Below the pieces are notes generated by a model. It searched no databases, was not told the origin of the DNA, and saw only the letters and a list, made by a program, of their open reading frames with translations. Positions 2,646 to 31,427 of a stretch of DNA of 32,000 nucleotides are shown here, in pieces. Origin of the DNA: Candidatus Methylomirabilis oxygeniifera (lineage in GTDB: Bacteria; Methylomirabilota; Methylomirabilia; Methylomirabilales; Methylomirabilaceae); assembly GCA_000091165.1 (NCBI GenBank), contig FP565575.1, forward strand, positions 120,001-152,000, given 5' to 3'. The stretch's first letter is position 1; each line of letters opens with the position of its first letter. The translations under genes were made by a program, and so were the position numbers.

Positions 2646-2660
2646 GCGAGTATGTCTGAT

Positions 2661-2701: not shown

Positions 2702-2750
2702 GCTATGCTACAACCAGTCAGCATGTAGCGATCAACACCGGGCGTGCGAG

Positions 2751-2812
2751 ACTGAAGGCGGAGATAGACCAAAAGCTGAAGAGTCAAGGATCTAATCCTA
2801 AAAGCCTTCAGT
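2751..2812. repeat. degenerate copy of the CTGAAGG palindromic element family
   Basis: 9-bp inverted repeat actgaaggc (2751-2759) / gccttcagt (2804-2812). It carries internal 'gatagac' and 'ctgaag' words shared with the elements at 22883-23003, 31433-31540 and 31835-31950. Confidence 0.35.
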
Positions 2813-2834
2813 ATGAACCCCTGAGCAAGGAAGA

Positions 2835-3731
2835 ATGGGTATGAGTCGAAGACTTGCAGTTGTTGGTGGATTGGTTGTTGTGATGTTCCTGTTTCCCTTT
2901 GCCTGGCAGGCCTGGGGGGGGCATGTCAACCCGCTCCGTGTCTGTGGCGATCCGAACAACCTGCCGTTCTCCAACAAGCAATCAGAAGGATTTGAGAATA
3001 AGATCGCTGAAGTGATCGCGAAAGAGCTTGGGACGGAGCTGACTTACTTCTGGTGGCCGCATCAGCATGGGTTAGTTCGGAGAGCGTTGAAACCGGGACT
3101 CTGTGATGTCATGATCTCGATCCCTCAGGGTTGGGATCGGGTTCTCTGGACCAAGCCTTATTACCGCTCGGCGTATACCCTTGTGTACCCCAAGGATCGA
3201 GGATTTCAGATCAGATCGCTTGACGACCCGATCCTGAAGCGCCTCAAGATCGGGGTCTATATCAATTCCCCACCGGCAGAGGCGTTAGCGAATAGAGGTA
3301 TCACGACAAACGTTGTCGGCTATAGCCCCTATTATGATTCCTTGACCGAACGCCGGGATAAAATTCTCCAGGATTTGATTGCCGGTGAGATTGATGTCGT
3401 ACTGGATTGGGGACCAATGGTCGGCTATTTTGTGAAACGGGTGAATAGTGGATCACAACCTCTTGAGGTAGTCCTTCTTCAGGGTGGGGAGCCAGGGAGT
3501 CCCTTCACCTTCGAGTTCTCCATGGGAGTGAAGGAGGGTAATACGGCACTCAAAGCTGAGCTGGAACAGGCGATCAGTAAGCGGCGCGCCGAAATCGGAA
3601 AAATCCTGGAAGAGTATGGTGTGCCCATTCTGCCGCTGCTGGCGCGCGAGCAGTTTCCAAAAGTAGAAGAAAAGCCTGGAGTGATCTTCTACCGCAGTTT
3701 CGATCGAGAGGACCCCCTTCCCTCTTATTAA
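2835..3731 (+). CDS. xoxJ: XoxJ/MxaJ-type periplasmic binding protein associated with quinoprotein dehydrogenases
   Basis: Signal peptide followed by 'LRVCGDPNNLPFSNKQSEGFENKIAEVIAKELG' and 'TKPYYRSAYTLV', the N-terminal signature of MoxJ-like family-3 solute-binding proteins. It lies directly downstream of xoxF. The start could instead be the ATG at 2841 (AAGGAAG RBS). Confidence 0.8.
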   Translation: MGMSRRLAVVGGLVVVMFLFPFAWQAWGGHVNPLRVCGDPNNLPFSNKQSEGFENKIAEVIAKELGTELTYFWWPHQHGLVRRALKPGLCDVMISIPQGWDRVLWTKPYYRSAYTLVYPKDRGFQIRSLDDPILKRLKIGVYINSPPAEALANRGITTNVVGYSPYYDSLTERRDKILQDLIAGEIDVVLDWGPMVGYFVKRVNSGSQPLEVVLLQGGEPGSPFTFEFSMGVKEGNTALKAELEQAISKRRAEIGKILEEYGVPILPLLAREQFPKVEEKPGVIFYRSFDREDPLPSY

Positions 3732-3782
3732 CGCAGAGCAAAAGGGGCAACCATCACCTAAGAAGAACGAGGACCAGTGACC

Positions 3783-4277
3783 ATGCTACAGAAAAAGACA
3801 CTTCTCGTCGTTTCAGTTCTAGGCCTTGTGATGTTGGGATGTGTCCAGAGTCTCACGGCTCAGACCCAGCAAGCTCCGGCGAAGACAACAGAATACGCTC
3901 AAGCGCAATCTGGTGAACAACCGAAAGGACCGGAGACCCCCGCACCTGCCGATCAGCAGAAGCCCAAAAAGCTCAATCCCTTTACCGGGAACGCAGACGC
4001 GATCAAAGCGGGACGGCAATTGTATCTGGAGAAAGGCTGTCCAGGCTGCCATGGTTCGGGTGGTGGTGGGGCGATGGCCGGCGCCACGGCATTCATACGT
4101 GATACTTGGAAATTTGCTGGTGACGACGACACCTACTTCAAAGTGATCAAGGGGACCTATCCAGGACAGACCATGCCGGCGGTCTTCGGGGCTACCCTGA
4201 CAGATGAGGAGACATGGAAAATTATTGCCTGGATCCGGTCGATCTATAAAGGGGATCCGGAGAGGATCGTGTGGTAA
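3783..4277 (+). CDS. xoxG: mono-heme c-type cytochrome (XoxG position), possibly lipid-anchored
   Basis: Single CxxCH motif ('CPGCHG') and a downstream 'GQTMP' candidate Met ligand. The N-terminal hydrophobic segment ends in 'VMLGC' (lipobox-like), followed by a Pro/Gln/Lys-rich linker. A GAGGA RBS lies 9 nt before ATG 3783; the ORF track starts at GTG 3777. Confidence 0.7.
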   Translation: MLQKKTLLVVSVLGLVMLGCVQSLTAQTQQAPAKTTEYAQAQSGEQPKGPETPAPADQQKPKKLNPFTGNADAIKAGRQLYLEKGCPGCHGSGGGGAMAGATAFIRDTWKFAGDDDTYFKVIKGTYPGQTMPAVFGATLTDEETWKIIAWIRSIYKGDPERIVW

Positions 4278-7342: not shown

Positions 7343-8584
7343 TCACGTATTCTCCATCGACTGCCGGTACCAGGATTGGTCGTACCCCTTCAACTCCACC
7401 TTCTCCGTATCCTTCAGGATATCGAAGGGCGACCTGGATTCCACCATCACAGCGATCTCGTCTCGGAATGGCAGGTCCTTCGGACGAGAAGCCTCCTCCC
7501 GAGCAATATCGGCCAGGAGCCTCAGATCCGGACCGTGGGCCAGACCGGCCGGGTGAAATGTCATGAATCCGTCCGTGATCTCGGGCCGCACGCCGTACGC
7601 CTTGTGGTTGAAGAGGGCCTCATCGACCCAATTGAGATGGTGATACGGCAGGCTGTGGATCCACCGGGGGAGGAAAACCTGCATCGCCATCCCTTCATCC
7701 TCGCTCACGAAGACCGTAAGCTTCTTCGGATCGAGGTGAACGTGTGGCGAGGACAGCGCCACCAGATCGTCGAGGCGCAGGATGAACGGCCACACCTCTC
7801 CCTCCCACGCCACGGCATCAAAGACCGGCGCTGCGTATGTGAGCAACGTGAGGCTGCCCCGCCGTCTTTTGACGACAACCTGTGTGGCCTCATCGTTGCC
7901 GAGCGGCGGATGGAGGGCGGCAAGAGGCGTCGGTTCCGGTGGAATCGGCGCGGCCGGCGAAAAGGGCCAGGGCTGCTGATCCCCCATCCAGTAGTCATAG
8001 GGGCGACACAGCCGTTTCGGAATTTCATAGAGGAGGATGGACACCCTTCCGGTCAAGAGAAACGAATAGGTGGTGCCTCGCGGGAGGAACACGAAATCGC
8101 CCTCCCGAATCTCCTCGATCAGCCCGAAATCGGTAATGAGCCTCAAGGGGTGTTCGGCCAGATGCACAAAATAGAGCTCATGGCAGTCCGCATGACGAGC
8201 GGCCGGTTGCCACTTCCCGGCTTCTCCGAAATCCCCATTACAGACCCGAATGGTGACATCGCTGCTCGAGAGGACAGGGACGAAGGAGCCGAACGTGGCC
8301 ATCTCTGCGACGTGGAAGGCTCGCCTCTGGAGAGGACGATCCTCCCCCATTGGCCGTTCGACGTGCGCTTTGAATAAGGGGTGGTCAGCGGGAATCGTCG
8401 CGCTTTCGACGACGGCGGTTGGAGGGCGTTCCATCAGGAGTTCCGTACCGAACTCAAGCTTGTAGCTCGAAAGGTCTCTCGGAGGGCGGCCGCTCCCGTG
8501 CCAGTCTGCAAGAGCCGTCTGGTAGTCAGACCGGATCCGTCGCTCGGTCCGTGTCAGGTTCATAAGCTTTGGAACGTACTCCAT
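7343..8584 (-). CDS. homogentisate 1,2-dioxygenase-family (cupin) dioxygenase
   Basis: 413 aa. 'SLPYHHLNWVDEALF' and 'FHPAGLAHGP' resemble the HGD Fe-ligand region as I recall it (PYYHRN..SEFMG ... H....PHGP). A GGAGAGGA RBS lies upstream of ATG 8584. Confidence 0.7.
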   Translation of the reverse strand: MEYVPKLMNLTRTERRIRSDYQTALADWHGSGRPPRDLSSYKLEFGTELLMERPPTAVVESATIPADHPLFKAHVERPMGEDRPLQRRAFHVAEMATFGSFVPVLSSSDVTIRVCNGDFGEAGKWQPAARHADCHELYFVHLAEHPLRLITDFGLIEEIREGDFVFLPRGTTYSFLLTGRVSILLYEIPKRLCRPYDYWMGDQQPWPFSPAAPIPPEPTPLAALHPPLGNDEATQVVVKRRRGSLTLLTYAAPVFDAVAWEGEVWPFILRLDDLVALSSPHVHLDPKKLTVFVSEDEGMAMQVFLPRWIHSLPYHHLNWVDEALFNHKAYGVRPEITDGFMTFHPAGLAHGPDLRLLADIAREEASRPKDLPFRDEIAVMVESRSPFDILKDTEKVELKGYDQSWYRQSMENT

Positions 8585-8612: not shown

Positions 8613-9296
8613 TCATTCTGTGAACGGGTCCCAGTCCGGCGGAATGGCGTCGAAGTCGAGGATCCAGATCGATTTGCCGGCCTCCTGGAGTTCCTCCAGG
8701 CACCGATACAGCGCCTGGACTGTGGCATGGTGGAAATGAGTAGGATCGCGTTCAAACAGGTCGAGGCGTTGATTGAGCTCGAGGAAGGGGCCGGCCGCCG
8801 GGTTCGGCGAGCGGAAGAGCGAGCCTGTGAACATCTGCAGGAGCCGGCTCCGATCATCATACAGGATGGGCGTGGTATAACGGACCCCCAACCGCTCCGT
8901 AATCCGACGATACGCTTCGATCGATCCTCCCTCGATACGGAGTGCGATGTGCTGGATCCCTTCCCCACAGCACTTGATGATGTGTGAGACCTGCGACTCG
9001 CCCCCCCGGTCGATGCCCTCCACCGGGGCGATATAGCCGGCTCCCGGCATCTCACCGAGCTGGATAGCGACCGTCTTCATGCTGGAAGGGGCTGCTGGAT
9101 CATTGACATCGTGGCTCTTGTAGGTCACCTGACCTCCCTGGAGTGCGCGCATGAACAGATAGGCGGTCTCCCGGAGGCTCTGTGTCGCGAGCGCCGCATG
9201 ATCGAGCTTCAACGTGAATGCGCCCCACAGTTCTGCCAGGAGGAGATCCCGTTCCGCCTCGCTCAAGCCGCCTGGCCCGCGCTGCGCTTTATCCAT
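8613..9296 (-). CDS. single-module 4-hydroxyphenylpyruvate dioxygenase-like (VOC superfamily) protein
   Basis: 227 aa. 'KLDHAAL', 'GIQHIALRI', 'LLQMFT' and 'FLELNQR' parallel the HPPD C-terminal-domain motifs (IDH.., G.QHIAL, LLQIFT, FFE.IQR), including candidate His/His/Glu ligands. The N-terminal HPPD domain is missing. An AAGGAG RBS overlaps the end of the upstream gene. Confidence 0.6.
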   Translation of the reverse strand: MDKAQRGPGGLSEAERDLLLAELWGAFTLKLDHAALATQSLRETAYLFMRALQGGQVTYKSHDVNDPAAPSSMKTVAIQLGEMPGAGYIAPVEGIDRGGESQVSHIIKCCGEGIQHIALRIEGGSIEAYRRITERLGVRYTTPILYDDRSRLLQMFTGSLFRSPNPAAGPFLELNQRLDLFERDPTHFHHATVQALYRCLEELQEAGKSIWILDFDAIPPDWDPFTE

Positions 9297-18540: not shown

Positions 18541-18556
18541 TGGCACTGGATTTGCA
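18541..18556 (+). promoter_or_regulatory. sigma-54 (-24/-12) promoter
   Basis: TGGCAC-tggat-TTGCA is an exact match to the TGGCAC-N5-TTGCW consensus. It lies about 35-40 nt upstream of the GGAGG RBS and start of the 18590 ORF. Confidence 0.6.
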
Positions 18557-18589: not shown

Positions 18590-20095
18590 GTGATGATGAG
18601 AACTCTTGTCTTGTCTCTATGTGCATTGTTCGTTTTTTCGGGAACTTTTCTGTCCGGGTCAGCCGTGGCCCAAGGGGCACCGTCGATCGCCGGCTGCCCT
18701 ATTTTTCCAGCAGACAACATCTGGAATACGCCCGTCGATACGCTGCCGCCGGACCCGAACTCGGACAGCTATATCAACTCGATCGGGAGAAATGCCGGCG
18801 TACATCCGGATTTCGGGTCGGGAATGTGGGAGGGGGCGCCGATCGGTATCCCCTTCGTGACTGTGCCAGGGACGCAGCCGATGGCACCGGTCGCCTGCTA
18901 TTACGCGGATGAAAGTGACGCAGGGCCGTATCCTATTCCGCTGGATGCACCGATTGAGGGGGGCAGCGACAGCAACGGCGATCGCCACGTGCTGGTCCTC
19001 GATCGGGATCGCTGCATGCTCTATGAGATCTACGACGCCTGGCCGCAACAGAGCGGGAGTTGGAGTTGCGGCTCGGGAGCGATCTACAACCTGTACTCAT
19101 ATACCCTGCGGCCCGAGGGTTGGACCTCGGCAGACGCGGCCGGACTGCCGATGCTGCCGGGACTGGCGCGCTATGACGAAGTGGCCGCCGGCGAGATTAC
19201 TCACGCCCTTCGTTTTACCGCGCCCAGCACGCGCCGGGCGTATATCTGGCCGGCCAGGCACTACGCATCCAGCTCGACAAATCCCGCTCTTCCCCCAATG
19301 GGCCAACGCTTCCGTCTGAAGGCCGGTGTCGATATCTCCGGCTTTTCGCCGCAGGTGCAGGTTATTTTGCGGGCCCTGAAGAAGTACGGAATGATCCTCG
19401 CCGACAACGGCTCATCCTGGTACATCTCCGGTGTACCCGACTCGGGCTGGAATGACGACGCGCTTGTCGGCGAACTGCGGCAGGTCCATGGCGACGACTT
19501 CGAGGCTGTCGATGTCTCCTCACTCATGCTCGATCCGAACTCCGGGCAGGTGCGGACGGACGGGTCGGACTTGAAGCGTCTGAGCGTGGGCACGGCGGGG
19601 AACGGTTCGGTGACAAGCGTACCGGGAGGGGTTGGGTGCCCGGGCGATTGCCTCGAAGATTTCCCGACGGGAACCACTGTCGAGGTGACGGCGACTGCCG
19701 GGGCCGGATACGTGTTGGACCGTTGGATGGGCGATTGCGTTGGGTCTGCGCCGACATGCAGTCTGATAATGAGCGCTGACCGGCAGGCAACGGCGGTGTT
19801 TTCGCCAGCACCTCAGTGGGTGACGGTCCAGGAGCCGAACGGCGGCGAACGATGGAAGGTGGGCAGGAAGATGACGATACGCTGGCGGTCCGGCGGCTTC
19901 TCTGGAAAGGTGAGGATTGAGTTGTCGACGGACGGCGGCTTGTCATGGAGGACGATCATCGCGGGCACCCCCAATGATGGGGCACAACAGTGGAAGGTAC
20001 CGCGCTTGCGAACCACTCAGGGGCGACTCAGGATCACCGCGGTCTCGGATTCCTCAATTATCGATGCGAGCGATGCGAATTTCACGATCTTTTGA
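18590..20095 (+). CDS. secreted multidomain hypothetical protein
   Basis: Signal peptide 'LVLSLCALFVFSGTFLSGSAVA/QG'. The N-terminal region of about 300 aa has no recognised family. It is followed by a Cys-containing beta-repeat-like module ('GNGSVTSVPGGVGCPGDC...YVLDRWMGDC') and a C-terminal Ig/Kre9-like module ('WKVGRKMTIRWRSGG..GKVRIELSTDGG'). The start is ambiguous between GTG 18590, ATG 18593 and ATG 18596. Confidence 0.7.
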   Translation: MMMRTLVLSLCALFVFSGTFLSGSAVAQGAPSIAGCPIFPADNIWNTPVDTLPPDPNSDSYINSIGRNAGVHPDFGSGMWEGAPIGIPFVTVPGTQPMAPVACYYADESDAGPYPIPLDAPIEGGSDSNGDRHVLVLDRDRCMLYEIYDAWPQQSGSWSCGSGAIYNLYSYTLRPEGWTSADAAGLPMLPGLARYDEVAAGEITHALRFTAPSTRRAYIWPARHYASSSTNPALPPMGQRFRLKAGVDISGFSPQVQVILRALKKYGMILADNGSSWYISGVPDSGWNDDALVGELRQVHGDDFEAVDVSSLMLDPNSGQVRTDGSDLKRLSVGTAGNGSVTSVPGGVGCPGDCLEDFPTGTTVEVTATAGAGYVLDRWMGDCVGSAPTCSLIMSADRQATAVFSPAPQWVTVQEPNGGERWKVGRKMTIRWRSGGFSGKVRIELSTDGGLSWRTIIAGTPNDGAQQWKVPRLRTTQGRLRITAVSDSSIIDASDANFTIF

Positions 20096-20393: not shown

Positions 20394-20906
20394 ATGGTGA
20401 AAAAAGCGGCCATGTTGTCGGTTGCGGTACTGTTTGGAATGCAGGCAGGTCTTGCGATGGCGGCACCAAATCCCGATACGGGACCAGGATGCGGCTTGGG
20501 CAAGCTTGCCTGGTCCGACTACCAGAGGCAGAAGGACATCGCCCCACAGGTTATGATGGCTACGACCAACGGGACCTTTGGTAGCACTACGTTCGGTATC
20601 AGCTCTGGGACCTCCGGCTGCACCAATGACGGTAAGATCATGGGCGACAGTAAGACGGTCATGTTCGCTGAGTTGAACTTTGAGAATCTCTCTCAGGAGA
20701 TGGCCCGTGGTCAGGGGGAACACCTCGCCTCGCTGGCGACCTTGATGGGCATACCGGCCGATCAGCACGGCGCCTTTTTCGCGATGACCCAGGAACGCTA
20801 CACCTCACTGGTCGAGGCGGGCGAAACCTCTCCGGTGGCCATGGTGAAGGCGATCAATGAAGCCATTGCCGGTCATCCGGTGCTTGCCAAGATCTCTTCT
20901 CGATAA
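20394..20906 (+). CDS. DUF3015-family exported protein
   Basis: AAGGAGGA RBS followed by 'MVKKAAMLSVAVLFGMQAGLAMA/AP'. 'GPGCGLGK..W', 'TTNGTFGSTTFGISSGTSGC' and 'LSQEMARGQGEHL' fit my recollection of DUF3015 proteins. Confidence 0.7.
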   Translation: MVKKAAMLSVAVLFGMQAGLAMAAPNPDTGPGCGLGKLAWSDYQRQKDIAPQVMMATTNGTFGSTTFGISSGTSGCTNDGKIMGDSKTVMFAELNFENLSQEMARGQGEHLASLATLMGIPADQHGAFFAMTQERYTSLVEAGETSPVAMVKAINEAIAGHPVLAKISSR

Positions 20907-20910
20907 CGTT

Positions 20911-22875
20911 ATGAACGGGCTCTGGCCTTCCGGTCAGAGCCCGTTCTGTTTTTCCGTTCGGGTATTACTTCTATCGAGTTCTATCGTTTTTTCTGCCGTG
21001 TGCCTCGCGTCTCTGCCGGCTGGCGCAGAGCCCATCACCGCTGACGTATATCTGTCCGAACTGCAGGCCAAGGTGCGCGCACGTCAACTTGCGGATGACC
21101 GCGAGTGGCATCTGCTCCTTCATTATCGTCCCCGTCTTTTCGGTAGATATGAAAGCGAACAGGACGACCCCGGGTTTTTTCTCTCGTCGACAGGGAAGAC
21201 CGATCCTCAAGCGGAGCTGGATGCGACGCTGGCGCAATTCTTCTCGTCTGAGTTGGTTGGGCGATCCAGGCAGCCGGCGCAATGCGCGTTCATTGCGCGC
21301 TACCACTGGCTAAGGCGAATACTGCAATTCGACGAGTCGCGCTTGCCGAAGATGGCGTGCGAACGGTACGACCGGTGGTTTGCAGATTTTGAGGCCCGGT
21401 CTATTACGCTGATTTTTCCTTCGGCCTTTATGAATAATCCGGCATCAATGTTCGGACATACCTTGCTGCGGGTCGATCAGAAGGACCAGACCGATCAGAC
21501 GCGGATCCTTGCCTACACCATCAATTATGCGGCGGACGTACCGCCGGACGCAGGTATCGCCTATCCGATTCGCGGTATCTTCGGACTCTATAAGGGATAT
21601 TTCTCGACTATTCCGTACTACTTGAAAGTGCAGGAGTATCGCGACATCGAAGATCGTGATATCTGGGAATATCGTCTGAATCTCACTGAACGGCAAGTCG
21701 AGCGCCTCCTAATGCATGCCTGGGAATTGGGAAATGCCTCGTTCGATTACTTTTTCTTCAAAGAAAACTGCTCCTATCATCTTCTGACGCTGCTCGATTA
21801 CGCGGACCCAACGTTGCATCTTACGGATGAGTTTGTTTTCTGGACCGTCCCGGCCGACACGGTCCGACTTATTGCATCGAAGCCGGGGTTAGTCGCGGAC
21901 GTCACCTATCGTCCCGCCCGCAGTAACCTGATCCGGCGCAAACGCGAATCTCTATCGCCGGACGATCGCACACTGACTCTGCGGATTACCAAGGATCTGA
22001 GCGAGCTTACGTCATCGGCTTTTGCCCGGTTGGGTCCTCCACGCCAAGCGTTTCTACTCGATCTGGCTTCGGACCACTTACGATATCAAATCGATACAGC
22101 CGACGAGCCATCGTCTGACCTGAAAGAGCGAAACCGGGCGCTCTTGACGGCCCGCAGCCGACTCAGGATTCCATCTGAGGATTTTATGGTGGCACCGTTC
22201 GCGAAACAGCCGGAGTTGGGGCACAAGACCTCTCGCATCAGCGTGGGGGTCGGCCGGCGGAATCACGATACGTTTGAGGAAGTGACGGTACGAGCGGGTT
22301 ATCATGATCTGTTGGATCGGGAGGTCGGTTATACCCCCGATGCCCAGATCGAAATCGCGTCCATTACAGCTCGCCACTACAATCGGGCAGATCGAACGCG
22401 GATTGAACGGGCGATGTTCGCCAATATCTTATCCCTCTCGCCGGTTGACTCGGTCTCACATGCCCCATCGTGGAAAATCAATGCCGGTATGCAGACGATC
22501 AGGCACCATGGCTGTGAACTGTGCCGCAATGGGGTCATGAATGGCGGCATCGGGGGAGCCGTCGAATCTCGATTGCTGGGTCGGGAGGTCCTGTTCGCGT
22601 TGGCGGAAGCGGAAGGAAATTACAGTCGTGCATACGAAGAGCGGCATCGAGTCGGCGGCGGCGGGACGGTCGGGATACTGGCCGACCTGACCGCGCATTG
22701 GAAGCTCATGGCTACGGGGACCTATCTGAAATATGCGTTGGGTGAGACGTCCGACGACATTCGTTGGTTTATCGGATCACGCTACACACTGTCGCGAAAC
22801 TGGGCACTGCGGCTTGAGTATCATCACAGGGATCGTGACAACGACGCGACGTTCACGCTCCAGGCGTTCTTTTAG
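20911..22875 (+). CDS. DUF4105 (Lnb N-terminal-like) domain protein with a C-terminal beta-barrel-like region
   Basis: About 654 aa. 'FPSAFMNNPASMFGHTLLRVD' and 'FFFKENCSYHLL' are characteristic DUF4105 motifs. The signal-like segment is 'VLLLSSSIVFSAVCLASLPAGA/EP'. The C-terminus ends in an aromatic residue ('TFTLQAFF') as in outer-membrane proteins. The start is uncertain (ATG 20911 versus GTG 20857). Confidence 0.75.
   Translation: MNGLWPSGQSPFCFSVRVLLLSSSIVFSAVCLASLPAGAEPITADVYLSELQAKVRARQLADDREWHLLLHYRPRLFGRYESEQDDPGFFLSSTGKTDPQAELDATLAQFFSSELVGRSRQPAQCAFIARYHWLRRILQFDESRLPKMACERYDRWFADFEARSITLIFPSAFMNNPASMFGHTLLRVDQKDQTDQTRILAYTINYAADVPPDAGIAYPIRGIFGLYKGYFSTIPYYLKVQEYRDIEDRDIWEYRLNLTERQVERLLMHAWELGNASFDYFFFKENCSYHLLTLLDYADPTLHLTDEFVFWTVPADTVRLIASKPGLVADVTYRPARSNLIRRKRESLSPDDRTLTLRITKDLSELTSSAFARLGPPRQAFLLDLASDHLRYQIDTADEPSSDLKERNRALLTARSRLRIPSEDFMVAPFAKQPELGHKTSRISVGVGRRNHDTFEEVTVRAGYHDLLDREVGYTPDAQIEIASITARHYNRADRTRIERAMFANILSLSPVDSVSHAPSWKINAGMQTIRHHGCELCRNGVMNGGIGGAVESRLLGREVLFALAEAEGNYSRAYEERHRVGGGGTVGILADLTAHWKLMATGTYLKYALGETSDDIRWFIGSRYTLSRNWALRLEYHHRDRDNDATFTLQAFF
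20913..20953 (+). terminator. rho-independent terminator after the DUF3015 gene
   Basis: Stem gaacgggctctg(gcc) / (ggt)cagagcccgttc (12 perfect bp plus 3 more including a G-U pair) with a ttcc loop, followed by tgTTTTT. It begins 7 nt after the TAA at 20904-20906 and lies inside the first codons of the next predicted ORF. Confidence 0.65.
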
Positions 22876-23011: not shown

Positions 23012-23656
23012 TTACCCGGCGGCTGCTTGTATGCGAACGACGCGCGCGTCGGCCTCGAGGATATCTTCAACGCGTGCGTTCCAGAGGGAGCGGAAACGAG
23101 CGACCGAGGCGGGATCGCCATTGGAGAGCGCGGGGCCGATAGATGCCGGCAGGTCTTTGGAGGTCGGCACCACGTTCGGCTCGTAGGTGACATGGACGGT
23201 ACGCCCGGTGTCGAGGCGCTCAAAGTCGAACTCGCTGTGACGCAGATCATCGGTTCGAAAGACGAACAGATCGCGCCGGCGAAAGCGTCCGGCGCCCAGT
23301 CCTCCAAAACCGGTTTCAGGCGCGGCGCCGATAGCGACGTTGACCAGTTGTGAGATCGGCCCATATCCGAAATCGGTCGGGCCGCCGTATGCCGTCACCC
23401 GGACGTTGCCGCGAACAGCCGGCTCATCGCCGTACAACGCTTTCAGTCCGTGTCGCAGGACAAGGTATGCGCCGGCGACGGTCGGACACATATGACCCGC
23501 CGCTTTCACTAGCTCGTCAAAGCTGACCGCAATCGGCTCCCCTGGAGCGACCAGTCCCAGAAATTCGAGAAAAGGGTCGCGAACCACAATCGGTTCGGGA
23601 TGTACTCGCAACGAGAGCCCAAGTTGTTCACGTGGTGTCGCCTTCTCCGTGCTCAT
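23012..23656 (-). CDS. FmdE-like domain protein (hypothetical)
   Basis: 214 aa. 'AAGHMCPTVAGAYLVLRHGLKAL' resembles the FmdE-family 'HGH.CPG.A.G.R....AL' motif. The gene starts 19 nt downstream of the NnrS-fusion stop. Confidence 0.5.
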   Translation of the reverse strand: MSTEKATPREQLGLSLRVHPEPIVVRDPFLEFLGLVAPGEPIAVSFDELVKAAGHMCPTVAGAYLVLRHGLKALYGDEPAVRGNVRVTAYGGPTDFGYGPISQLVNVAIGAAPETGFGGLGAGRFRRRDLFVFRTDDLRHSEFDFERLDTGRTVHVTYEPNVVPTSKDLPASIGPALSNGDPASVARFRSLWNARVEDILEADARVVRIQAAAG

Positions 23657-23674: not shown

Positions 23675-25483
23675 TTACGCTTGACGCGATATTGCCGCCA
23701 GCTTGCCCAGCTCGGCCAGCAACGGTTCAAGTTCGATACTGTGAATTCGGCACGCCTGTCGTAACGTGACGGTGGGGGCCATCGCCTCGCGCATGGCCGG
23801 GTTCTGGAGCGGACGCAAGCCGCGACTCACGAGGAGTTCGAGGGCGCCAGGGATGGTCAGCAGATCGGCGACGAGGTTATCCGCCAGTGGATCCGCCTCT
23901 GATGAGGCGGGTACTACGGTCAGCGGTCGCGCGCGTACGGTCATGAATACGTTGCCGGCAAAGGCAGCAAAGGCTCCGACGCCCAACAGACCGGAAATGG
24001 AGATATACGGCCACACGTCGGCCAGACCGGCCACCTCAACCAGCAGTTCGAGGCCGCGTGTGGCGATCGTCGCGTTGAGCAGGTAGAAGGTCGCGTCGCG
24101 CCATCCCGTGCTCCACAACGGCGTCCCGGCAAATACCGGGATGAGGCGCGCGGCAACGCCGACGATAATCTGCGTGAGAAAGCCGAGGGTGAACGCATGG
24201 CGACCGAAGTCCAGGACCAGCGTCGGCATGGGGTCACCTGTCATCGCCGACGCTGCGCTCCAGATAGGCGTGAACACCAGCGCGCCAAGCAACCATACAT
24301 AGGCGGCGACCAAAAACTTTTCGTAGCCACGATCGCCTACTTGGGTCTGATTCTCCCGCGACCCCAGGATGCCAAGTCGCCATACAAACCCGCCTACCAT
24401 CAATGACAGCGCTACCCCGGTCAGTGCGCGCGCGCCTGGAAGCACTATCCATGTGTCGATGACGGCGACGGCCACCCATGCCGATACAGCCAGTTGATAG
24501 CCGCCAAACAGGGCACTGCTCGTCTGTTGAGATAACGGCGGCAGGCCCAGGAAGACCGGCACGATGCGTAAACTCATGCCGAGAATCCACGAGCCCGCGA
24601 AGCCCCACAGCGCCGCTTCCCACACGACCGGTTGGAGCGAATCGGCGCCGGCAGTCGCCGCGACGGCCAGAGCGGCCGCAACTGTCAGCCATGCACAGCC
24701 TGCGCGAAGATAGCGCTCGAAGCCCTCCGGCGTGGGCGGGCCGGCAGCCAGGCTGCAATGGATGACCCATCCGAAACTTGCCGCCGCCGCAAGCAGCGCA
24801 AGGACGCCTATACACTGTGCCGGCCCAACGACCGGCGGTCCGACGAGCAGGCCGACGGCGACGGCCAGTACGCCGCCTGTTTGCAGCCAGAACGATGCCG
24901 AGGCCACGCCCGGTGCGGCAAGCGGCGCCCCTTTGAAGCGGGGGATCACGTGGTAGGCGACACCCATAATGAAGAGGGCGGCGAAGCCGAAGACCTGCGT
25001 GTACCCATGCGCCAGTTTGGCGACGTCCGTCGACAGTCCGCCAAGGAAATTCCAGGGAAGTGTGAGCGTGGCAAGGGTCAGCGCGCCGAGCGTACTGCCG
25101 AAGGTAAGCGCAAAGAGCAAGCTGGCGGCAAAGAACCGGACGTAGGGTGTCGGTCGGGGAGCGGCGGGCACGACGACCGCCGGCGACGCCGCCGGCGCGG
25201 GCGACGCCGCTACCTCGCAGGCGGGTGAGGCGCAAGGGCGGACAGGCTCTGTCGCAACGACGGCGGACCGTTCACGCGGCGCGCCCGCTCGGTTCAAAGC
25301 CGTCAGCAACTCGCCGAGATCGATACCGCGAACATGTGCGGCCTCAGCGAGCGTTGCGCTGCCGCCGCAGCAGGTGTCGATCCCGTGCGCATTTAAAACC
25401 CGACTGAGGGCCGGATCGGCGTGCACGACATCATCAACCGTTGTTATGCTCGTAAACTGATGTGCGGCCATTGAGCGGCTCAT
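23675..25483 (-). CDS. nnrS: NnrS-like polytopic membrane protein fused to an N-terminal ScdA_N (RIC-type) domain and a C-terminal DUF1858-like domain
   Basis: The N-terminus 'VDDVVHADPALSRVLNAHGIDTCCGGSATLAEAAHVRGIDLGELLTALN' parallels the YtfE/ScdA N-terminal domain (D.CCGG..TL..AA). After an Ala/Pro linker there are about 12 TM helices with 'AHGYTQVFGFAALFIMGVAYHVIPRF' (NnrS-like H....FGF). The C-terminus is 'LLTIPGALELLVSRGL...TLRQACRIHSIELEPLLAEL'. Confidence 0.7.
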   Translation of the reverse strand: MSRSMAAHQFTSITTVDDVVHADPALSRVLNAHGIDTCCGGSATLAEAAHVRGIDLGELLTALNRAGAPRERSAVVATEPVRPCASPACEVAASPAPAASPAVVVPAAPRPTPYVRFFAASLLFALTFGSTLGALTLATLTLPWNFLGGLSTDVAKLAHGYTQVFGFAALFIMGVAYHVIPRFKGAPLAAPGVASASFWLQTGGVLAVAVGLLVGPPVVGPAQCIGVLALLAAAASFGWVIHCSLAAGPPTPEGFERYLRAGCAWLTVAAALAVAATAGADSLQPVVWEAALWGFAGSWILGMSLRIVPVFLGLPPLSQQTSSALFGGYQLAVSAWVAVAVIDTWIVLPGARALTGVALSLMVGGFVWRLGILGSRENQTQVGDRGYEKFLVAAYVWLLGALVFTPIWSAASAMTGDPMPTLVLDFGRHAFTLGFLTQIIVGVAARLIPVFAGTPLWSTGWRDATFYLLNATIATRGLELLVEVAGLADVWPYISISGLLGVGAFAAFAGNVFMTVRARPLTVVPASSEADPLADNLVADLLTIPGALELLVSRGLRPLQNPAMREAMAPTVTLRQACRIHSIELEPLLAELGKLAAISRQA

Positions 25484-25558: not shown

Positions 25559-25587
25559 AATATAGCTGAAGCGGCAAGGGAGGTCAA
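25559..25587 (-). promoter_or_regulatory. sigma-70-type promoter candidate upstream of the NnrS-fusion gene
   Basis: On the minus strand: TTGACC (25587-25582), 17-nt spacer, TATATT (25564-25559). It lies in the 122-nt gap after the cytochrome gene. Confidence 0.4.
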
Positions 25588-25605: not shown

Positions 25606-26070
25606 TCAGCGCGCTTCGTCGAGCCGGTATACCGCATGGCAGGCCACGCAGTTGCCGGTCAGCGTTGCAAGCCCACGGAGGATGTCGGCTTGGCTGCCGC
25701 CTGCCTGAATCTGGTCGGCCAGCATATCGAACCCCCGATGGGTGTGCATTGCCAACTCCAGGAACTGCCGAGGAAGCCGTGTCTTGATATGCGGATTGAC
25801 GTCGGCGGCTTTCCCGATGCCCGACGCGCGGGCTGCCTTTTCCGCCGCAGGGAGATCGCCGGTCGCTACGCCCTGGATGATCCCGCTTACAGACGCGAGC
25901 ATGACGCGCATCTCCGTCAGCATCATATCTCGCTGCGCATGGGCAAGGACCACGCGTTGCCGCGTATCGACCGACGATTCGTGGGGTTCAACGGCAGCCG
26001 AGTAACCGAGGCACCCAAGGACGATGGCCCCCACTACACCCGCACAGATTCCGAGCCGCGTTAGTCTCAT
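25606..26070 (-). CDS. cytochrome c'-like (class II, four-helix-bundle) cytochrome
   Basis: About 154 aa from ATG 26070 (GAGGAG RBS). It has a signal peptide, predicted helical content and a single CxxCH ('CVACHAVYR') only about 10 residues from the C-terminus, the hallmark of class II c-type cytochromes. Confidence 0.7.
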   Translation of the reverse strand: MRLTRLGICAGVVGAIVLGCLGYSAAVEPHESSVDTRQRVVLAHAQRDMMLTEMRVMLASVSGIIQGVATGDLPAAEKAARASGIGKAADVNPHIKTRLPRQFLELAMHTHRGFDMLADQIQAGGSQADILRGLATLTGNCVACHAVYRLDEAR

Positions 26071-26133
26071 TCTTCTCCTCGTCTCCTTTCTCTGGAAAAT
26101 AGCATTCAGCACTCAGCGCTCCTCAACCCACTG

Positions 26134-27594
26134 CTATTCAGGATGTTTTTCGGATCGAAGATGAGCCATGGACATTGTCCAGCGACTTTCTGAGACGTGT
26201 TGAATTGGCGCATTTGCCGTTTGCCACAGATTGACCGCCAGACACGCGACGGCCCCCCACCCGAGTATCCCTGAGATCGCAAAGATCGTTTGAACAAGCA
26301 GATCGACTGCCGGCAGTCGATCGGATAACCAACCTGGTGAAAGTAACGGGACAACACGACAGACCGCCGCCGCACTGCCTAGCCAAAAGGTGGCATCGAC
26401 TAATGTGGCACTGGCTACTCGTTTTCTCCGTATGAAGCCGGGCAGCATCCGAACCGACGCGCCGAAAATGAGGTGGGTGATAAAGCCAAGGAGATACATA
26501 TGGCGGATGGCGTCCGCTGCGATCGGAATCGAATAGCCGAGCAGGACGGTCGCGCCGCCAAGGAGTTCCATGAACGCGCCAAGAACAAGCCACGTATAGG
26601 CGGCGTAGACCGGGCGTTCGAATCGGCCAAACTCGCCATAATCCGGTAAGCCCGGTCGCGTGGGCGGGCGGTCCGGCCCGGTGTCAAGAAAGCGCGCATG
26701 ACGCCCTAAGGGTCGGCGGCGGGTCAGCAGATCAAGTTGCCACACGAACCAGAGGATGATACCCCCCTTCAGCAGCGTTCCCAGCGCGATGATCAATCTG
26801 ATAACGCCAGGCGCGAACCCCGCCATGGGAGGCGCCGCGGGGACCAGTTGCAGCACGACGGACAGCAGATACGCACATCCGATCCTGTACACCGGCCAAT
26901 CAGGAGCCGGTAGAGCCAGATACAGCGGAAAGAGGCGAACCGATAGCGCAAAGGCGACAGGCAACAGGACAAGACTGATGAAGGCGTGAACAGCAAATTC
27001 ATTCCAACCGGAATTTACGGCGACATTGCCGGTCAGTGCCATATGAAGCAGCAAGAACAGGTTGAGACACGCGTAGAGGATCCAGCCGGCCGCCATCATG
27101 CCAAAAAACGGCTTGACCGCACCGATCGCCGGAAGCTTTCTGGCTTGATTACTGCCGCGCATGGTCCCAATCAGGAGCGACACGTACAGGACGATTGCCC
27201 CTGCTTCCAGCAGTCCGGAGGCGCCTACCAGCCAACTGAGAGGAACAAACAGCGGGCTCTCTTCAAAGGACGCCAGAACCGTACCGCCCACCGCCCGAAA
27301 CAGCAGCCCCGGCACCATCAGCCAAAGAATGTAGTTCATTCGTTCCGGATGAGGCAGGGGGAAGCTGGCCAGTCGTGGAATGAAATGCAGGCTGATGCCC
27401 ATAATGAATACGCCTGCCCAGCCGACGAGTTGCAGATGTCCGTGCGTTTGGATCAGCGCGTAGAAACCCTGCCCTGCGGGAAGGCCGTAGGCGATGACGA
27501 CGGCGAGGTATGCGCCGAACGCAAAGCCTCCGGCAATCGCTGTGGTCAACGATGTCCAGATAAAGCCGGGGTGGAACTCGGCATAGCGCTTCAC
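26134..27594 (-). CDS. nnrS: NnrS-like polytopic membrane protein (paralogue)
   Basis: 486 aa, about 12 TM helices. 'THGHLQLVGWAGVFIMGISLHFIPRL' is clearly paralogous to the motif in 23675-25483. GTG start at 27594. Confidence 0.7.
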   Translation of the reverse strand: MKRYAEFHPGFIWTSLTTAIAGGFAFGAYLAVVIAYGLPAGQGFYALIQTHGHLQLVGWAGVFIMGISLHFIPRLASFPLPHPERMNYILWLMVPGLLFRAVGGTVLASFEESPLFVPLSWLVGASGLLEAGAIVLYVSLLIGTMRGSNQARKLPAIGAVKPFFGMMAAGWILYACLNLFLLLHMALTGNVAVNSGWNEFAVHAFISLVLLPVAFALSVRLFPLYLALPAPDWPVYRIGCAYLLSVVLQLVPAAPPMAGFAPGVIRLIIALGTLLKGGIILWFVWQLDLLTRRRPLGRHARFLDTGPDRPPTRPGLPDYGEFGRFERPVYAAYTWLVLGAFMELLGGATVLLGYSIPIAADAIRHMYLLGFITHLIFGASVRMLPGFIRRKRVASATLVDATFWLGSAAAVCRVVPLLSPGWLSDRLPAVDLLVQTIFAISGILGWGAVACLAVNLWQTANAPIQHVSESRWTMSMAHLRSEKHPE

Positions 27595-27735: not shown

Positions 27736-28335
27736 TTACAGTTTCTGTGCCTCGCTGGCCAGGTAGCTCGCGACACCGTCGGCGTCAGGCCGCATCCCCT
27801 TGGCCCCATGTGTCCAACCAGCAGGGCAGACCTCTCCATGCGTCTCAGTAAACTGGAGCGCATCCACCATGCGAAGCATCTCATCCACATTACGTCCGAG
27901 TGGCAGGTTGTTGACGACCTGGTGTTGCACGATGCCGCATTTGTCGATCAGGAAGGAGCCGCGCAGGGTCACTCCGCCAGGCAGCAGGACGTCGTATTCT
28001 CTGGCGATCGCCTTTGTCAGGTCGGCCACCAGTGGATAGCCTACCGGGCCGATGCCGCCCTTGTTGACAGCGGTGCCGCGCCATGCGCAATGGGTGAAAT
28101 GCGAATCGACGGAGCACCCGATCACCTGGACGCCGCGCTTCTCGAACTCGGCGACACGATGATCAAAGGCGATAATCTCTGAAGGACAGACGAAGGTAAA
28201 ATCGAGGGGATAGAAGAAGAGCACAACATACTTACCCCAGTAGTCGGATAACTTGAAATTGTTGTTAAAGCTGCCGTCCGCCATCACGGCGGTTGCAGTA
28301 AAATCAGGTGCGGACTTGCCTACGAGTACGCTCAT
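27736..28335 (-). CDS. typical 2-Cys peroxiredoxin (AhpC/Tsa family)
   Basis: 199 aa from ATG 28335 (GGAGGAG RBS). The peroxidatic Cys lies in 'FYPLDFTFVCPSE' and the resolving Cys in 'HGEVCPAGW'. The long Arg/Ala-rich N-terminal extension in the track ORF overlaps the upstream gene and is discarded. Confidence 0.92.
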   Translation of the reverse strand: MSVLVGKSAPDFTATAVMADGSFNNNFKLSDYWGKYVVLFFYPLDFTFVCPSEIIAFDHRVAEFEKRGVQVIGCSVDSHFTHCAWRGTAVNKGGIGPVGYPLVADLTKAIAREYDVLLPGGVTLRGSFLIDKCGIVQHQVVNNLPLGRNVDEMLRMVDALQFTETHGEVCPAGWTHGAKGMRPDADGVASYLASEAQKL

Positions 28336-29001: not shown

Positions 29002-29811
29002 TCAGTTGCCCTCGATGGAGTTGCCATCATTGGAATCGGTGGGATTGTTGAGGCAGGTAGGGTGATTGAAGGCGCCGGGGAATGCGCCGGCTGCCTCCCC
29101 CTGAATGAGGGCATCGTTACTCGCGGAGGAGACCCCTCCGGGAAGATTTGCGACATGAAAAGCTCCGCCCGCCACCGCCTCGCGGACCTTCCAGGCCACG
29201 ACATGGTCGGTGCAGGAGGTATCGCCGGAGACGCCGATCGCGCCGACCTTTACGTGGCTGCTGTTGTATAGGGCGAGACCGCCACCGAATACGTTGATGC
29301 CGCCGACCCGCTCCTTTTCGAGCGGATCCTTGGTGGTGCCGAACTTGCCGGAGTCTCCATCATAGGCGGCTGTCGGATCGACCGGATTGCTGTGTTGGAG
29401 CCCGTACAGGCTCCCGCCCGGTTGCACTGCCTTGTGCAGATTAGCGGTAGACAAGGCGAGCAGGCCGGTACTGAAGGCGTTCGCCGTATTGGCCTTCTGG
29501 GCCGAGATGACGCGACTGCCCAGCCAGATATCGCGCACGGCGCTCTGGGAACCGGTTAACGAGTTAACGACCTCACATACCTTTCCGCTGTCATCCACCA
29601 GAGTAAGCCACATAGGGAAGTCGAGACCGCCGCTAGGGGCTCCATCAGCGTTCCCATTACCTGACGGAACAACAGCCCGCAAGGTGGTCTGCAGTGTGTC
29701 ATGAGTCAGCCCTTGGCTGGCCAATTGCGAGCAGGTATCCGCCATTGCCGGTACCGCCGCTACCATCATCCCGCCCAATACCATTGCCCCGACAAATCGA
29801 TTCCGTTTCAT
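29002..29811 (-). CDS. secreted GlcG/HbpS-like (DUF336, heme-binding/degrading-like) protein
   Basis: 269 aa from ATG 29811 (GAGGAGGG RBS). It has the signal peptide 'GAMVLGGMMVAAVPAMA/DT', plus 'VISAQKANTANAFS' and 'GGGLALYNSSHVKVGAIGVSGDTSCTDHVVAWK', the GlcG-family core. It also has N- and C-terminal extensions. Confidence 0.65.
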   Translation of the reverse strand: MKRNRFVGAMVLGGMMVAAVPAMADTCSQLASQGLTHDTLQTTLRAVVPSGNGNADGAPSGGLDFPMWLTLVDDSGKVCEVVNSLTGSQSAVRDIWLGSRVISAQKANTANAFSTGLLALSTANLHKAVQPGGSLYGLQHSNPVDPTAAYDGDSGKFGTTKDPLEKERVGGINVFGGGLALYNSSHVKVGAIGVSGDTSCTDHVVAWKVREAVAGGAFHVANLPGGVSSASNDALIQGEAAGAFPGAFNHPTCLNNPTDSNDGNSIEGN

Positions 29812-30449
29812 TCCGTTCGGCCCTCCTCGTGAGTGTAAGTAGTTGACTGTTCGGCTATCCGGAAATAGTTCGCCTCGTCGCGCGTGAATCGATGGAGTTG
29901 TTTCGGAGAGATCGTGCGCCATACCTATCAGTACGGCATCTCTGCGCAAAGTTGAGTGACCCCGCTACGAATGTGTCCCTTTCACCTGCGGACCGGCGAT
30001 CCCTAGTAAGGGCGCAGGATCGGGGGTCCTCGGCCGGTCCCCAACAATGTGGCTCTTCCGGGTTTCGGGTACGTAAGGATCGCATTCTCCTGAAAAATGA
30101 AGTTATTGAGCGTGGTCAGACATAACTCCATGGGGTACGTACCGTCAATACGCCTTTTGGCGTATACGATCCACTTTTCCTGATAATTCTAATGTCTGAC
30201 TCGCCGTTCTCACGAAGAGCCATAGATTACGATGAGAACATTGTACTAATAATACACAGGCTTATAGCGATGGAATATAGCAGTAGACGGAAGAATAAGT
30301 CACTACCAATCACTGATCCGGCCGCTTGCCGGCCTGCCTTCGTGATGGACATCTCTCTTGATCTATGATAGGAAATCGTTGTAGCGGGTCCCTACAGAAG
30401 GGCCTCCGTTAACGCATAACACAATACAATAACCGAAGGGAGAGCGAGG

Positions 30450-31427
30450 ATGATGCCGAAAACAAGTCATCGAAGCTGCCGATGCCTCGTAATCGCGCTT
30501 CTGTGGTGGTTCGCTCATGTTTCGTCGGCCGCTGCGGCCGGACCGATGGCCTATGTGGCGAATGAAAAATCCGATGATGTGTCGGTCATCGACACTTCAA
30601 CGAATACAGTGATCCGCACGATCGCGGTGGGTAAGCGGCCGAGAGGCGTGGCGATCTCGCCGGACCGACGTCACGTGTACATTGCCAACGGCAATTCCGA
30701 TGACATTAGTATCATCGATGCCGAGGTTGGGAAGGTCGTGGAAACATGGCCTGCAGGGGTCGACCCCGAGGGGGTGGCGCTGAGTCCTGACGGGACCCGT
30801 CTGTACGCAGTGAACGAGAATGGCGGAACGGTCACGGTGATCAACACCAAGACCGGCACAGTGATTGCCACCATCGAGGTCCAGGTAGAGCCGGAGTCGA
30901 TTGCCGTCAGTCCCGATGGACAGGTTGCCTACGTCTCCAACGAAACATCGAATACGATTTCGGTTATCGATACGGCGACCCTCAAGGTACTAACGGCTAT
31001 CCCGGTTGCGAAGAACCCGCGTGGGATCGCCTTCAGCCCTGACGGCAAGTATGCCTACGTGACCAGCGAGCAGGTCGAGCCCGGCGTGCTGTCGGTGATC
31101 GAGGTGGCTCGCCATAAGGTGATCAAGAGCATCCCGGTCGGCGAACGGCCGGTTGGAGTGGTGGTGTCACGGGACGGTCGCACCCTTTATGTGGCGCACG
31201 GCCGGAGTAATGCCGTCTATGTCGTCGATGCCCGCACCTTGACCGTCACCAAACAGATCCCGGTGGGCCAGCGGGCCTGGTACCTGGCCTTTACGCCGGA
31301 CGAGCAACGTCTCTATGTCGCCTGTGGTCGCAGCGACGCGGTGTCGGTGATTGATGTCGCAGCCGGGAAAGTCATCGCCACGGTTCCGGTCGGCAAGATA
31401 CCGTTTGGCGTCGCCATTCCACAGTAA
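30450..31427 (+). CDS. YVTN-family seven-bladed beta-propeller protein, exported
   Basis: Signal peptide, then seven repeats of about 42 aa of the form 'YV.N..S..VSVID..T..V...I.VG..P.G.A.SPDG'. A GGGAGAGCGAGG RBS region precedes the ATG. Confidence 0.85.
   Translation: MMPKTSHRSCRCLVIALLWWFAHVSSAAAAGPMAYVANEKSDDVSVIDTSTNTVIRTIAVGKRPRGVAISPDRRHVYIANGNSDDISIIDAEVGKVVETWPAGVDPEGVALSPDGTRLYAVNENGGTVTVINTKTGTVIATIEVQVEPESIAVSPDGQVAYVSNETSNTISVIDTATLKVLTAIPVAKNPRGIAFSPDGKYAYVTSEQVEPGVLSVIEVARHKVIKSIPVGERPVGVVVSRDGRTLYVAHGRSNAVYVVDARTLTVTKQIPVGQRAWYLAFTPDEQRLYVACGRSDAVSVIDVAAGKVIATVPVGKIPFGVAIPQ

Follow-up and report, generated by a model that had tools for sequence, protein, structure and literature searches.

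NnrS and RIC (YtfE/ScdA) are widespread stress proteins of nitric oxide (NO) metabolism whose mechanisms are disputed, and NnrS has no known reaction. What, then, is the task of a protein that carries parts of both? Such a protein is encoded on the minus strand of a 32,000-nucleotide stretch of the genome of Candidatus Methylomirabilis oxygeniifera (contig FP565575.1, positions 120,001 to 152,000), which is called the window throughout and whose first letter is position 1 of all coordinates given below. The gene joins an N-terminal ScdA_N domain, a membrane core of 12 transmembrane (TM) helices and a C-terminal DUF1858 domain in one open reading frame (ORF). The product resembles a hybrid of NnrS and RIC and is a borderline member of Pfam NnrS, and its architecture is widespread, not rare. 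The function favoured here, with about even chances of being correct, is that of a membrane-tethered RIC-like module protecting or repairing iron centres under NO stress. The gene and its parts are arranged as follows.

23675..25483, minus strand: tripartite membrane-protein gene, the single longest ORF, 602 amino acids (aa)
25286..25441, minus strand: ScdA_N (DUF542) domain, residues 15-66, cytoplasmic (Pfam PF04405, 60.3 bits, cut-off 32.5, E 1.4e-16)
25367..25372, minus strand: vicinal pair C38-C39 of the D-x-CC-G-G loop, from the alignment to ScdA
25142..25285, minus strand: Ala/Pro-rich disordered linker, residues 67-114 (48 aa, 50% Ala+Pro)
23933..25141, minus strand: core of 12 TM helices, residues 115-517, with the fold of haem-copper oxidase (HCO) subunit I, NnrS/COG3213-like (AlphaFold2, Foldseek, Pfam)
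25007..25009, minus strand: codon of H159 in TM2, invariant in 140/140 representatives, aligned with CyoB H106 and NorB H53
24197..24202, minus strand: codons of R428-H429 in TM10; H429 invariant in 140/140 representatives, aligned with NorB H328
23720..23869, minus strand: DUF1858 domain, residues 539-588, cytoplasmic (Pfam PF08984, 51.6 bits, cut-off 32.2, E 1e-13)

The ORF at 23675-25483 is real, and every detail of the observation that drew attention to it was confirmed. The public gene call gives a protein of 598 aa with its ATG at 25469-25471; because the deposited protein is 100% identical from M5 on, the public start is the ATG at 25471. The nearest named relatives, at 95% identity, come from metagenome-assembled genomes of Candidatus Methylomirabilis oxyfera/oxygeniifera. 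No Pfam match was found for the ORFs overlapping the gene on both strands, and no Rfam family in the 32-kb window. Databases already label the architecture 'DUF542 domain-containing protein', and one JGI name lists all three domains. The original prediction had not recognised the combination of ScdA_N, NnrS-like core and DUF1858 as characterised, and the literature likewise yielded no published description or functional study of it.

The nature of the membrane core is revealed by its predicted fold. The AlphaFold2 model, run on a 57-sequence alignment (mean predicted local distance difference test, pLDDT, 88.3), places exactly 12 long helices within residues 115-517, the number that had been predicted. 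A Foldseek search against the PDB returned HCO subunit I chains as 50/50 of the matches listed. The top match was CcoN of cbb3 oxidase (E 2e-7, TM-score at most 0.73 when normalised by the target), followed by NorB and by subunit I of the aa3, bo3 and ba3 oxidases, all with probability 1.0. PDB sequence searches with the protein and with family profiles matched only the two small domains and gave nothing for the core, and a tblastn search of the PLSDB plasmids with the core gave no match.

The assignment of the core to NnrS held in one respect and fell short in another. The Pfam NnrS model (PF05940) aligns over nearly its full length (residues 118-513, model positions 11-364 of 371), but the score of 24.2 bits lies below the cut-off of 28. 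COX1 (PF00115, gathering score 34.8) gives no match to the window protein at E <= 1. Among the relatives, the protein of Brocadia sapporoensis scores 55.2 with COX1 and 37.6 with NnrS, that of Pyrinomonas 59 with NnrS, and those of Scalindua 30.9-35.5 with NnrS; as relatives pass both curated cut-offs, the family is placed between Pfam NnrS and COX1. JGI names family members 'uncharacterized protein involved in response to NO'. The ~400-aa core of 12 TM helices is shared, by Pfam profile, with NnrS (PF05940/COG3213; R. sphaeroides, and the NorR regulon of V. cholerae), as is a genomic context of NO metabolism and denitrification. Canonical NnrS proteins of ~400 aa, in contrast, are without the cytoplasmic ScdA_N and DUF1858 domains present here.

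Conservation was counted in 140 representatives with identity down to ~22%, and only H159, G174, H429 and G434 are invariant in 140/140. Near-invariant positions are R476 and P181 (139 each), P449 (137), R182 (135), and R428, R306 and Q163 (131 each), of which R428 and R476 lie at the same depth as H159/H429. Profile alignment with hhalign against E. coli CyoB places H159 on H106, the TM2 ligand of low-spin haem b (E 4.5e-4). Against S. meliloti NorB, taken from a 45-kb pSymA stretch, H159 falls on H53 and H429 on H328 (E 1e-3); NorB H328 is the second His of the TM10 motif H326-G-H328 and a low-spin haem ligand. G427 stands where NorB has its high-spin haem His, and the spacing from the TM10 His to Pro is 20 residues in both the core and NorB. 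In addition, a three-fold pseudo-repeat of the form H/W...G...G...R/H-x-x-P is visible on TM2, TM6 and TM10.

Of the six canonical metal-ligand His, just H159 on TM2 and H429 on TM10 are kept, and there is no CuB/FeB site. Among the 140 representatives no conserved His was found on TM6/TM7, where position 293 varies between F, L, Y, H and W. Judged by the alignments, the core appears to keep a low-spin haem site, at which R428 and R476 are candidates for pairing with the propionates, and to have lost the binuclear centre. Oxidase or NO reductase activity is not expected, since the CuB/FeB site is missing. The protein shares with HCO subunit I (CcoN, NorB, aa3/bo3) the 12-helix fold and the His on TM2 and TM10 that align with low-spin ligands, yet it is without the high-spin haem His, the three CuB/FeB His and a subunit II, NorC or CcoO partner, and it bears extra cytoplasmic domains; with four of the six His ligands missing, it falls outside the canonical HCOs. 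R. sphaeroides NnrS reportedly contains haem and copper. The reported copper content has no obvious conserved ligand set in the present family, whose two invariant His are compatible with one haem.

Both termini form small four-helix domains of the ScdA_N/DUF1858 clan, and the two are assigned to one clan because their hidden Markov models (HMMs) cross-match. The predicted N-terminal ScdA_N domain with a CCGG motif is clearly detected by Pfam, and its loop C38-C39-G40-G41 (GIDTCCGG) aligns with GIDFCCGG in S. aureus ScdA (PDB 9r7j). Across ~110 N-terminal domains of the family, C38 is kept in 104 and C39 in 13 only; the commonest loop is G-C-G-G-P with a single Cys, and the CC pair, which the close relatives of the window protein also carry, is a minority variant. 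Two or three copies of the N-terminal domain occur in some relatives, e.g. Scalindua and P0085/P0087. The linker has the length (~50 aa) and the Ala/Pro richness first ascribed to it, and its pLDDT is below 50 at residues 75-93 and 100-109. It also contains a C84-x4-C89 element (RPCASPAC; 25217-25234, minus strand), which is kept by the Methylomirabilis members of alignment A1 and which no other lineage there shows in that form.

The C-terminal domain was likewise recognised correctly as DUF1858 without the Cys loop. It matches PDB 2FI0 (E 0.004 with the single sequence, E 8.8e-12 with the family profile), its loop GLRPLQNPAMR is of the 2FI0-like GF/LxPLxNPxxR type with no Cys at the CCGG-equivalent place, and its sole Cys, C578, sits in a helix. 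The 2FI0-type domain is shared with T. thermophilus DrpB (DUF1858 plus two DUF2249), B. diazoefficiens bsl7085 and SufT-DUF1858, small soluble proteins for which no biochemical function is known to us, whereas here the domain hangs at the C-terminus of a 12-TM protein. The DUF1858 of DrpB and of the SufT fusions likewise associates with DUF2249, hemerythrin and DUF59 (PMC6282519, PMC4982691). The context of denitrification and the NO regulon is shared with bsl7085, and a stand-alone DUF1858 gene beside nnrR is among the most strongly NnrR-dependent genes of B. diazoefficiens (PMC6710368). The DUF1858 loop would be redox-active, considering that the family includes CxxU selenoprotein members (PMC9312934).

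RIC proteins (YtfE/ScdA/DnrN) share with the window protein a bona fide ScdA_N domain with the D-x-CC-G-G loop, and relatives of the fusion have a hemerythrin or complete RIC gene in the same operon or adjacent to it. The window protein itself lacks a di-iron domain and is therefore no RIC: it gives no Hemerythrin Pfam match, and TIGR03652 reaches 37.9 bits against a cut-off of 204.7, over model positions 1-53. Here ScdA_N is instead tethered to a membrane protein through the disordered linker. Lys and Arg residues number 13 on the cytoplasmic side, to which the termini belong, and 4 on the periplasmic side. This bias, together with the RIC-type cytoplasmic domains at the termini and the lack of a signal peptide, gives an N-in/C-in topology, as the check on the cytoplasmic location of both termini had been expected to give.

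The architecture is found far beyond Methylomirabilis. A word-indexed search retrieved 89 homologues, most of them of 573-616 aa with all three Pfam domains, from groups including NC10, Deltaproteobacteria and Binatia; stand-alone core relatives measure 424-460 aa. A profile search of 1.84 billion cluster representatives returned 643 clusters (50% identity) at E <= 1e-30 and 1805 at E <= 1e-10. Among the 150 best representative clusters the majority measure 570-700 aa, and more than 100 cover the whole profile. In a subset of 79 representatives Pfam detected NnrS in 70 (E < 1e-3, best 5e-21), DUF1858 in 64, ScdA_N in 40 and COX1 in 40. When one genome per GTDB species was scanned, relatives turned up in at least 521 of them, from groups including Methylomirabilota, Binatia, Myxococcota, Acidobacteriota (including the cultured Pyrinomonas methylaliphatogenes K22), Chloroflexota, Verrucomicrobiota and Planctomycetota (including the anammox genera Brocadia and Scalindua). 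The N-domain, core and C-domain lie in one ORF in 70 of the best 80 species-level loci, among them loci of NC10, Binatia, Acidobacteriota, Chloroflexota and anammox Planctomycetota, and the single-ORF architecture holds in relatives from 95% to ~22% identity. NC10 and anammox bacteria use NO as an intermediate.

In the window the gene belongs to a same-strand cluster of five genes, listed here in the order of their coordinates together with a promoter match.

23012..23656, minus strand: FmdE-fold partner gene, 214 aa, 18 nucleotides downstream of the fusion gene
25559..25587, minus strand: sigma-70-like promoter match TTGACC-17-TATATT (10/12) in the 122-nucleotide gap upstream of the fusion gene
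25606..26112, minus strand: small haem lipoprotein-like gene, weakly cytochrome c'-like, probable start M15 at 26070
26134..27594, minus strand: 486-aa NnrS/COG3213-like HCO-fold paralogue without soluble domains (29% identity to the core, E 3e-19)
27736..28335, minus strand: AhpC/TSA peroxiredoxin, first gene of the cluster, probable start 28335 (Pfam AhpC-TSA, 121.5 bits)

The cluster runs in the order peroxiredoxin, paralogue, cytochrome-c'-like protein, fusion gene and FmdE-like gene, and the order is the same in Ca. M. oxygeniifera (locus L009). The FmdE-like protein is 72% identical to the C-terminal extension of 824-829-aa homologues from Binatia (P0042), and since it is fused there to the C-terminus of the membrane protein, the two are joined by a Rosetta-stone link; the same fusion was seen again in P0176 and L062. 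Its fold was recovered with confidence: the AlphaFold2 model has a pLDDT of 94.4, and its Foldseek matches are confined to FmdE-like structures, the four top ones being to 2GLZ, 2GVI and 3D00 (probability 1.0, E 5e-5 to 3e-4). An invariant G-H55-x-C57-P motif and the motif GAAPETGFGG mark the alignments (A4, A7). The partner in the window falls short of PF02663 (14.5 bits, cut-off 22.9); the homologue at locus L005 passes with 31.9, and PF02663 is also present in homologues at 37-52% identity, which go by the name 'FmdE family protein'. The likeness to the FmdE family (PF02663) lies in the fold and the conserved G-H-x-C-P motif, the difference in the lack of any connection between the partner and formylmethanofuran dehydrogenase. 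Searched by sequence against the PDB, the partner gave no match, and no C-terminal zinc-ribbon part was detected in it, although this was not examined in detail. We know of no established function for the FmdE family.

An N. gonorrhoeae homologue of the partner (~39% identity; locus L091, 6001-6627) lies inside an iron-siderophore uptake operon made up of a TonB receptor, Peripla_BP_2, two FecCD genes and an ATP-binding cassette (ABC) ATPase, and this context hints at an iron-handling role for this FmdE branch, whose Neisseria members are among those named 'FmdE family protein'.

The neighbours in relatives point to the same set of functions. At locus L003 the fusion gene is followed by FmdE-like and hemerythrin genes and then by nosZDFYL. 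At L008 divergent ApbE, cytochrome c, NosZ and NosR-NosD genes precede the fusion gene, which is again followed by FmdE-like and hemerythrin genes. In Binatia (L001) a sigma-54 activator is succeeded by the FmdE-like-bearing fusion, hemerythrin, DUF2249, a second membrane paralogue and DUF59, and at L005 a divergent group of sigma-54 activator, DUF2249-hemerythrin and sulfite-nitrite reductase stands before the fusion gene and its FmdE-like neighbour. Fusions add to these arrangements: DUF59 (FeS_assembly_P, SufT-like) is fused C-terminally in 10/140 representatives, and hemerythrin in 1/79 representatives scanned. Within 7 kb of the 80 species-level loci, searched with ad-hoc HMMs, hemerythrin was found near 19 (7 of them complete RIC-type ORFs of ScdA_N plus hemerythrin), DUF59 near 7, DUF2249 near 6, FmdE-like genes near 6 and at least one of these four near 30, as raw counts without a background frequency. 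From these raw counts the enrichment of partner genes was judged strong. The earlier idea of cytoplasmic sensing, or of a metal or NO relay coupled to the membrane domain, is compatible with these neighbouring and fused genes.

The ORF between the DUF2249 and DUF59 genes of L001 (11500-12639, plus strand; 379 aa) has no Pfam match and a weak phmmer match to the TM regions of the family (E 3e-8 to 8e-6), and it may be a truncated core paralogue. The 45-kb stretch of S. meliloti pSymA has a single ORF that matches the core HMM (L090, 18235-19590, minus strand; 28 bits, E 6e-9). This ORF lies ~7 kb away from norB, encodes a membrane protein of 452 aa that shares the three-fold H...GW...G...P helix motif, and matches no Pfam family; it may be an unclassified HCO/NnrS-like relative in a denitrification region.

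These observations suggest a mechanism for a membrane-tethered module of iron-centre protection or repair. Previous studies showed that the Cys pair of ScdA_N in YtfE faces a hydrophobic channel leading to the di-iron site and delivers electrons, and that the physiological reductant of YtfE is not known (PMC9052748; PMC9268430). In the proposed scheme the core would bind one bis-His b-type haem near the periplasmic face, would be without a catalytic binuclear centre, and would act as a redox or NO-interacting anchor rather than as an oxidase or NO reductase. The ScdA_N and DUF1858 domains would dock onto a soluble iron protein, relaying electrons or gating NO through their conserved Cys as in YtfE; the docking partner would be the FmdE-like protein in Methylomirabilis and a separate hemerythrin elsewhere. 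In this way iron centres in the cytoplasm would be repaired or de-nitrosylated in a process coupled to redox or NO chemistry at the membrane. The five-gene cluster of Methylomirabilis would then form one unit against nitrosative and oxidative stress, in a host that uses NO as a central intermediate.

A bolder form of the proposal is a 'split, membrane-wired RIC', in which RIC/hemerythrin-type di-iron proteins would have their physiological redox partner in this membrane haemoprotein, itself derived from an oxidase. Reducing equivalents or NO would travel by way of the tethered ScdA_N/DUF1858 cysteine domains, with the membrane or periplasm (quinol pool, cytochrome-c'-like protein) at one end and nitrite/NO chemistry or the repair of iron centres in the cytoplasm at the other. 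In this extended form the proposal is regarded as rather doubtful.

Several points weigh against a module of this kind. The haem in the core is predicted from alignment and conservation alone. A low-confidence local hhalign alignment against TM10 of CyoB puts H429 on H411 instead, and because the CyoB and NorB alignments of TM10 disagree, H429 is a low-spin ligand that we infer. The relay lacks an identified intermediate, since a haem at the periplasmic face would lie at too great a distance from the cytoplasmic domains to pass electrons to them directly. In most of the family a single Cys stands in place of the CC pair, and the cysteines of S. aureus ScdA are dispensable for nitrite reduction in vitro (PMC12412097). 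As regards genomic context, hemerythrin, DUF59 and DUF2249 genes were not found in the 32-kb window, any such partner lies within 7 kb in just 30/80 loci, and the neighbour counts are raw. No expression data under NO stress were found.

Four rival explanations were weighed in order of plausibility: an NO/redox sensor, a metal or cofactor delivery system, a divergent catalytic HCO, and an artefact. In the first, the membrane haem would bind NO or sense the redox state of quinone or periplasm, and the ScdA_N and DUF1858 domains, reached by a conformational change, would modulate a transcription factor or other effector. Regulators do stand close to the gene: in L001 and L003 the gene immediately upstream encodes a sigma-54 enhancer-binding protein with PAS domains, one such protein is encoded divergently in L005, a PAS response regulator follows the L008 operon, and a Crp/Fnr regulator precedes a stand-alone core in L007. 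Such adjacent proteins are, however, more simply regulators of the operon, and no sigma-54 promoter was found upstream of the operon of the fusion gene in the window. The apparent lack of a catalytic centre in the core would suit a sensor, and reactive Cys of the small domains could be S-nitrosylated. On the other hand, no output domain (kinase, GGDEF or helix-turn-helix) is fused in the 79 representatives scanned, the fused and neighbouring proteins handle iron and not signalling, and a bis-His six-coordinate haem would be a poor NO sensor. A sensor is therefore considered unlikely.

The second rival assigns the protein to metal or cofactor trafficking: the HCO-derived domain would serve as a conduit or scaffold and, with FmdE-like, DUF59 and hemerythrin proteins, would deliver iron, copper or haem to membrane or periplasmic NosZ, Nor or Nod. 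V. cholerae NnrS, as Stern et al. reportedly found in 2013, protects the cellular iron pool rather than removing NO, which would fit such a role. DUF59 proteins act in Fe-S maturation (PMC4982691), and the Neisseria FmdE homologue within its iron-siderophore ABC operon is in line with trafficking too. The gene lies beside nos clusters in two relatives, L003 and L008, but this is an adjacency in 2/6 distinct relatives' loci with Pfam gene tables (L001/L002, L003/L004, L005-L008), and M. oxyfera is, to our knowledge, not a user of NosZ. Moreover, the protein has no transporter signature, we know of no HCO-fold protein with a metal transport function, and two invariant His with flanking Arg suit a fixed haem better than a transit site. 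The probability of this rival is accordingly put low.

A divergent catalytic HCO, that is, a new NO reductase, NO dismutase or oxidase with non-canonical ligands, draws on the HCO fold with cbb3 oxidase and cNOR as the closest structures, on the Brocadia relative that passes Pfam COX1 with 55.2 bits, and on the presence of the gene in NO-metabolising organisms. Gly427 in place of the high-spin haem His speaks against it, as do the lack of any conserved TM6/TM7 His, Glu or Tyr for CuB/FeB, the restriction of invariant His to just two in 140 sequences, and the absence of a conserved subunit II or NorC-type partner. With the ligands of the binuclear centre missing, an HCO-type NO reductase or oxidase was rejected, and this explanation is held to be very improbable.

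The weakest rival, an artificial fusion of three genes by frameshift or mis-assembly, which the original prediction had raised and for which nothing was found beyond a low-complexity, GC-rich linker that could in principle hide an indel, was rejected and keeps practically no probability, because the one-ORF architecture is conserved across species, with all three parts in one ORF in 70/80 species-level loci, full-length homologues at 95% to 27% identity in many assemblies and an identical protein deposited from an independent record.

The other members of the Methylomirabilis cluster have features of their own. The paralogue at 26134-27594 scores 34.8 bits with Pfam COX1, equal to the cut-off, and its family, which has more than 500 members, goes by the name 'uncharacterized protein involved in response to NO'. 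It has extra His compared with the fusion, namely an H-G-H in TM2, one in TM6 where the fusion has W293, and another in TM10, and because of these extra residues it might bind more cofactors. The protein at 25606-26112 combines a lipoprotein-like signal (M15...VLGC) with a haem-c motif, CVACH, at its C-terminus; Pfam Cytochrom_C_2 gives 19.2 bits, below the cut-off of 26.5, and a PDB sequence search with it gave no match. The sigma-70-like promoter match between this gene and the fusion gene is suggestive only, considering that it is the sole match in 7.5 kb, where chance predicts 2.2.

Further features of the window lie outside the cluster. A methanol-dehydrogenase cluster at 804-4277 (plus strand), with an XoxF/MxaF-type pyrroloquinoline quinone dehydrogenase (613 aa) and, after it, a XoxJ-like solute-binding protein of family 3 and a XoxG-like c-type cytochrome, is consistent with the genome of a methanotroph. 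The ORFs at 7343-8584 (minus strand, 413 aa) and 8613-9296 (minus strand, 227 aa) have no Pfam family, and the former is overlapped by an opposite-strand ORF of 356 aa, likewise without a Pfam match. A sigma-54-type match, TGGCACTGGATTTGCA, with 1 mismatch lies at 18541-18556 (plus strand), 34 nucleotides upstream of the ORF at 18590-20095, which encodes 501 aa with an InlB B-repeat-like domain. The cluster is flanked by a convergent gene at 20857-22875 (plus strand) for a 672-aa Lnb_N/DUF7840/DUF7843 protein. Also flanking it are the genes for an HbpS-like protein of a haem-degrading family (29002-29949, minus strand) and for a YncE/cytochrome-d1-like beta-propeller (30450-31427, plus strand); both genes may be linked to haem or N-oxide metabolism.

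By joining an NnrS-like membrane domain and a RIC-type ScdA_N in one polypeptide, the protein offers a testable link between two unsettled NO-stress systems. A common pathway is argued for NnrS-like, ScdA_N, hemerythrin, DUF59/SufT, DUF2249 and FmdE-like proteins because fusions and operons join them, and the family thereby names concrete partners for testing. Experiments are feasible, since the cultured Pyrinomonas methylaliphatogenes K22 carries a relative. The family also represents a branch of the HCO superfamily that appears to have lost its catalytic centre and kept the low-spin haem site. If the membrane-wired RIC reading is true, it would explain both the function of NnrS and the purpose of the ScdA_N domain. 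Both groups of bacteria for which NO is a central intermediate, the NC10 methanotrophs and the anammox bacteria, contain members of the family, and in these organisms the protein would, if that reading holds, be part of the core machinery for living with NO as a metabolic intermediate.

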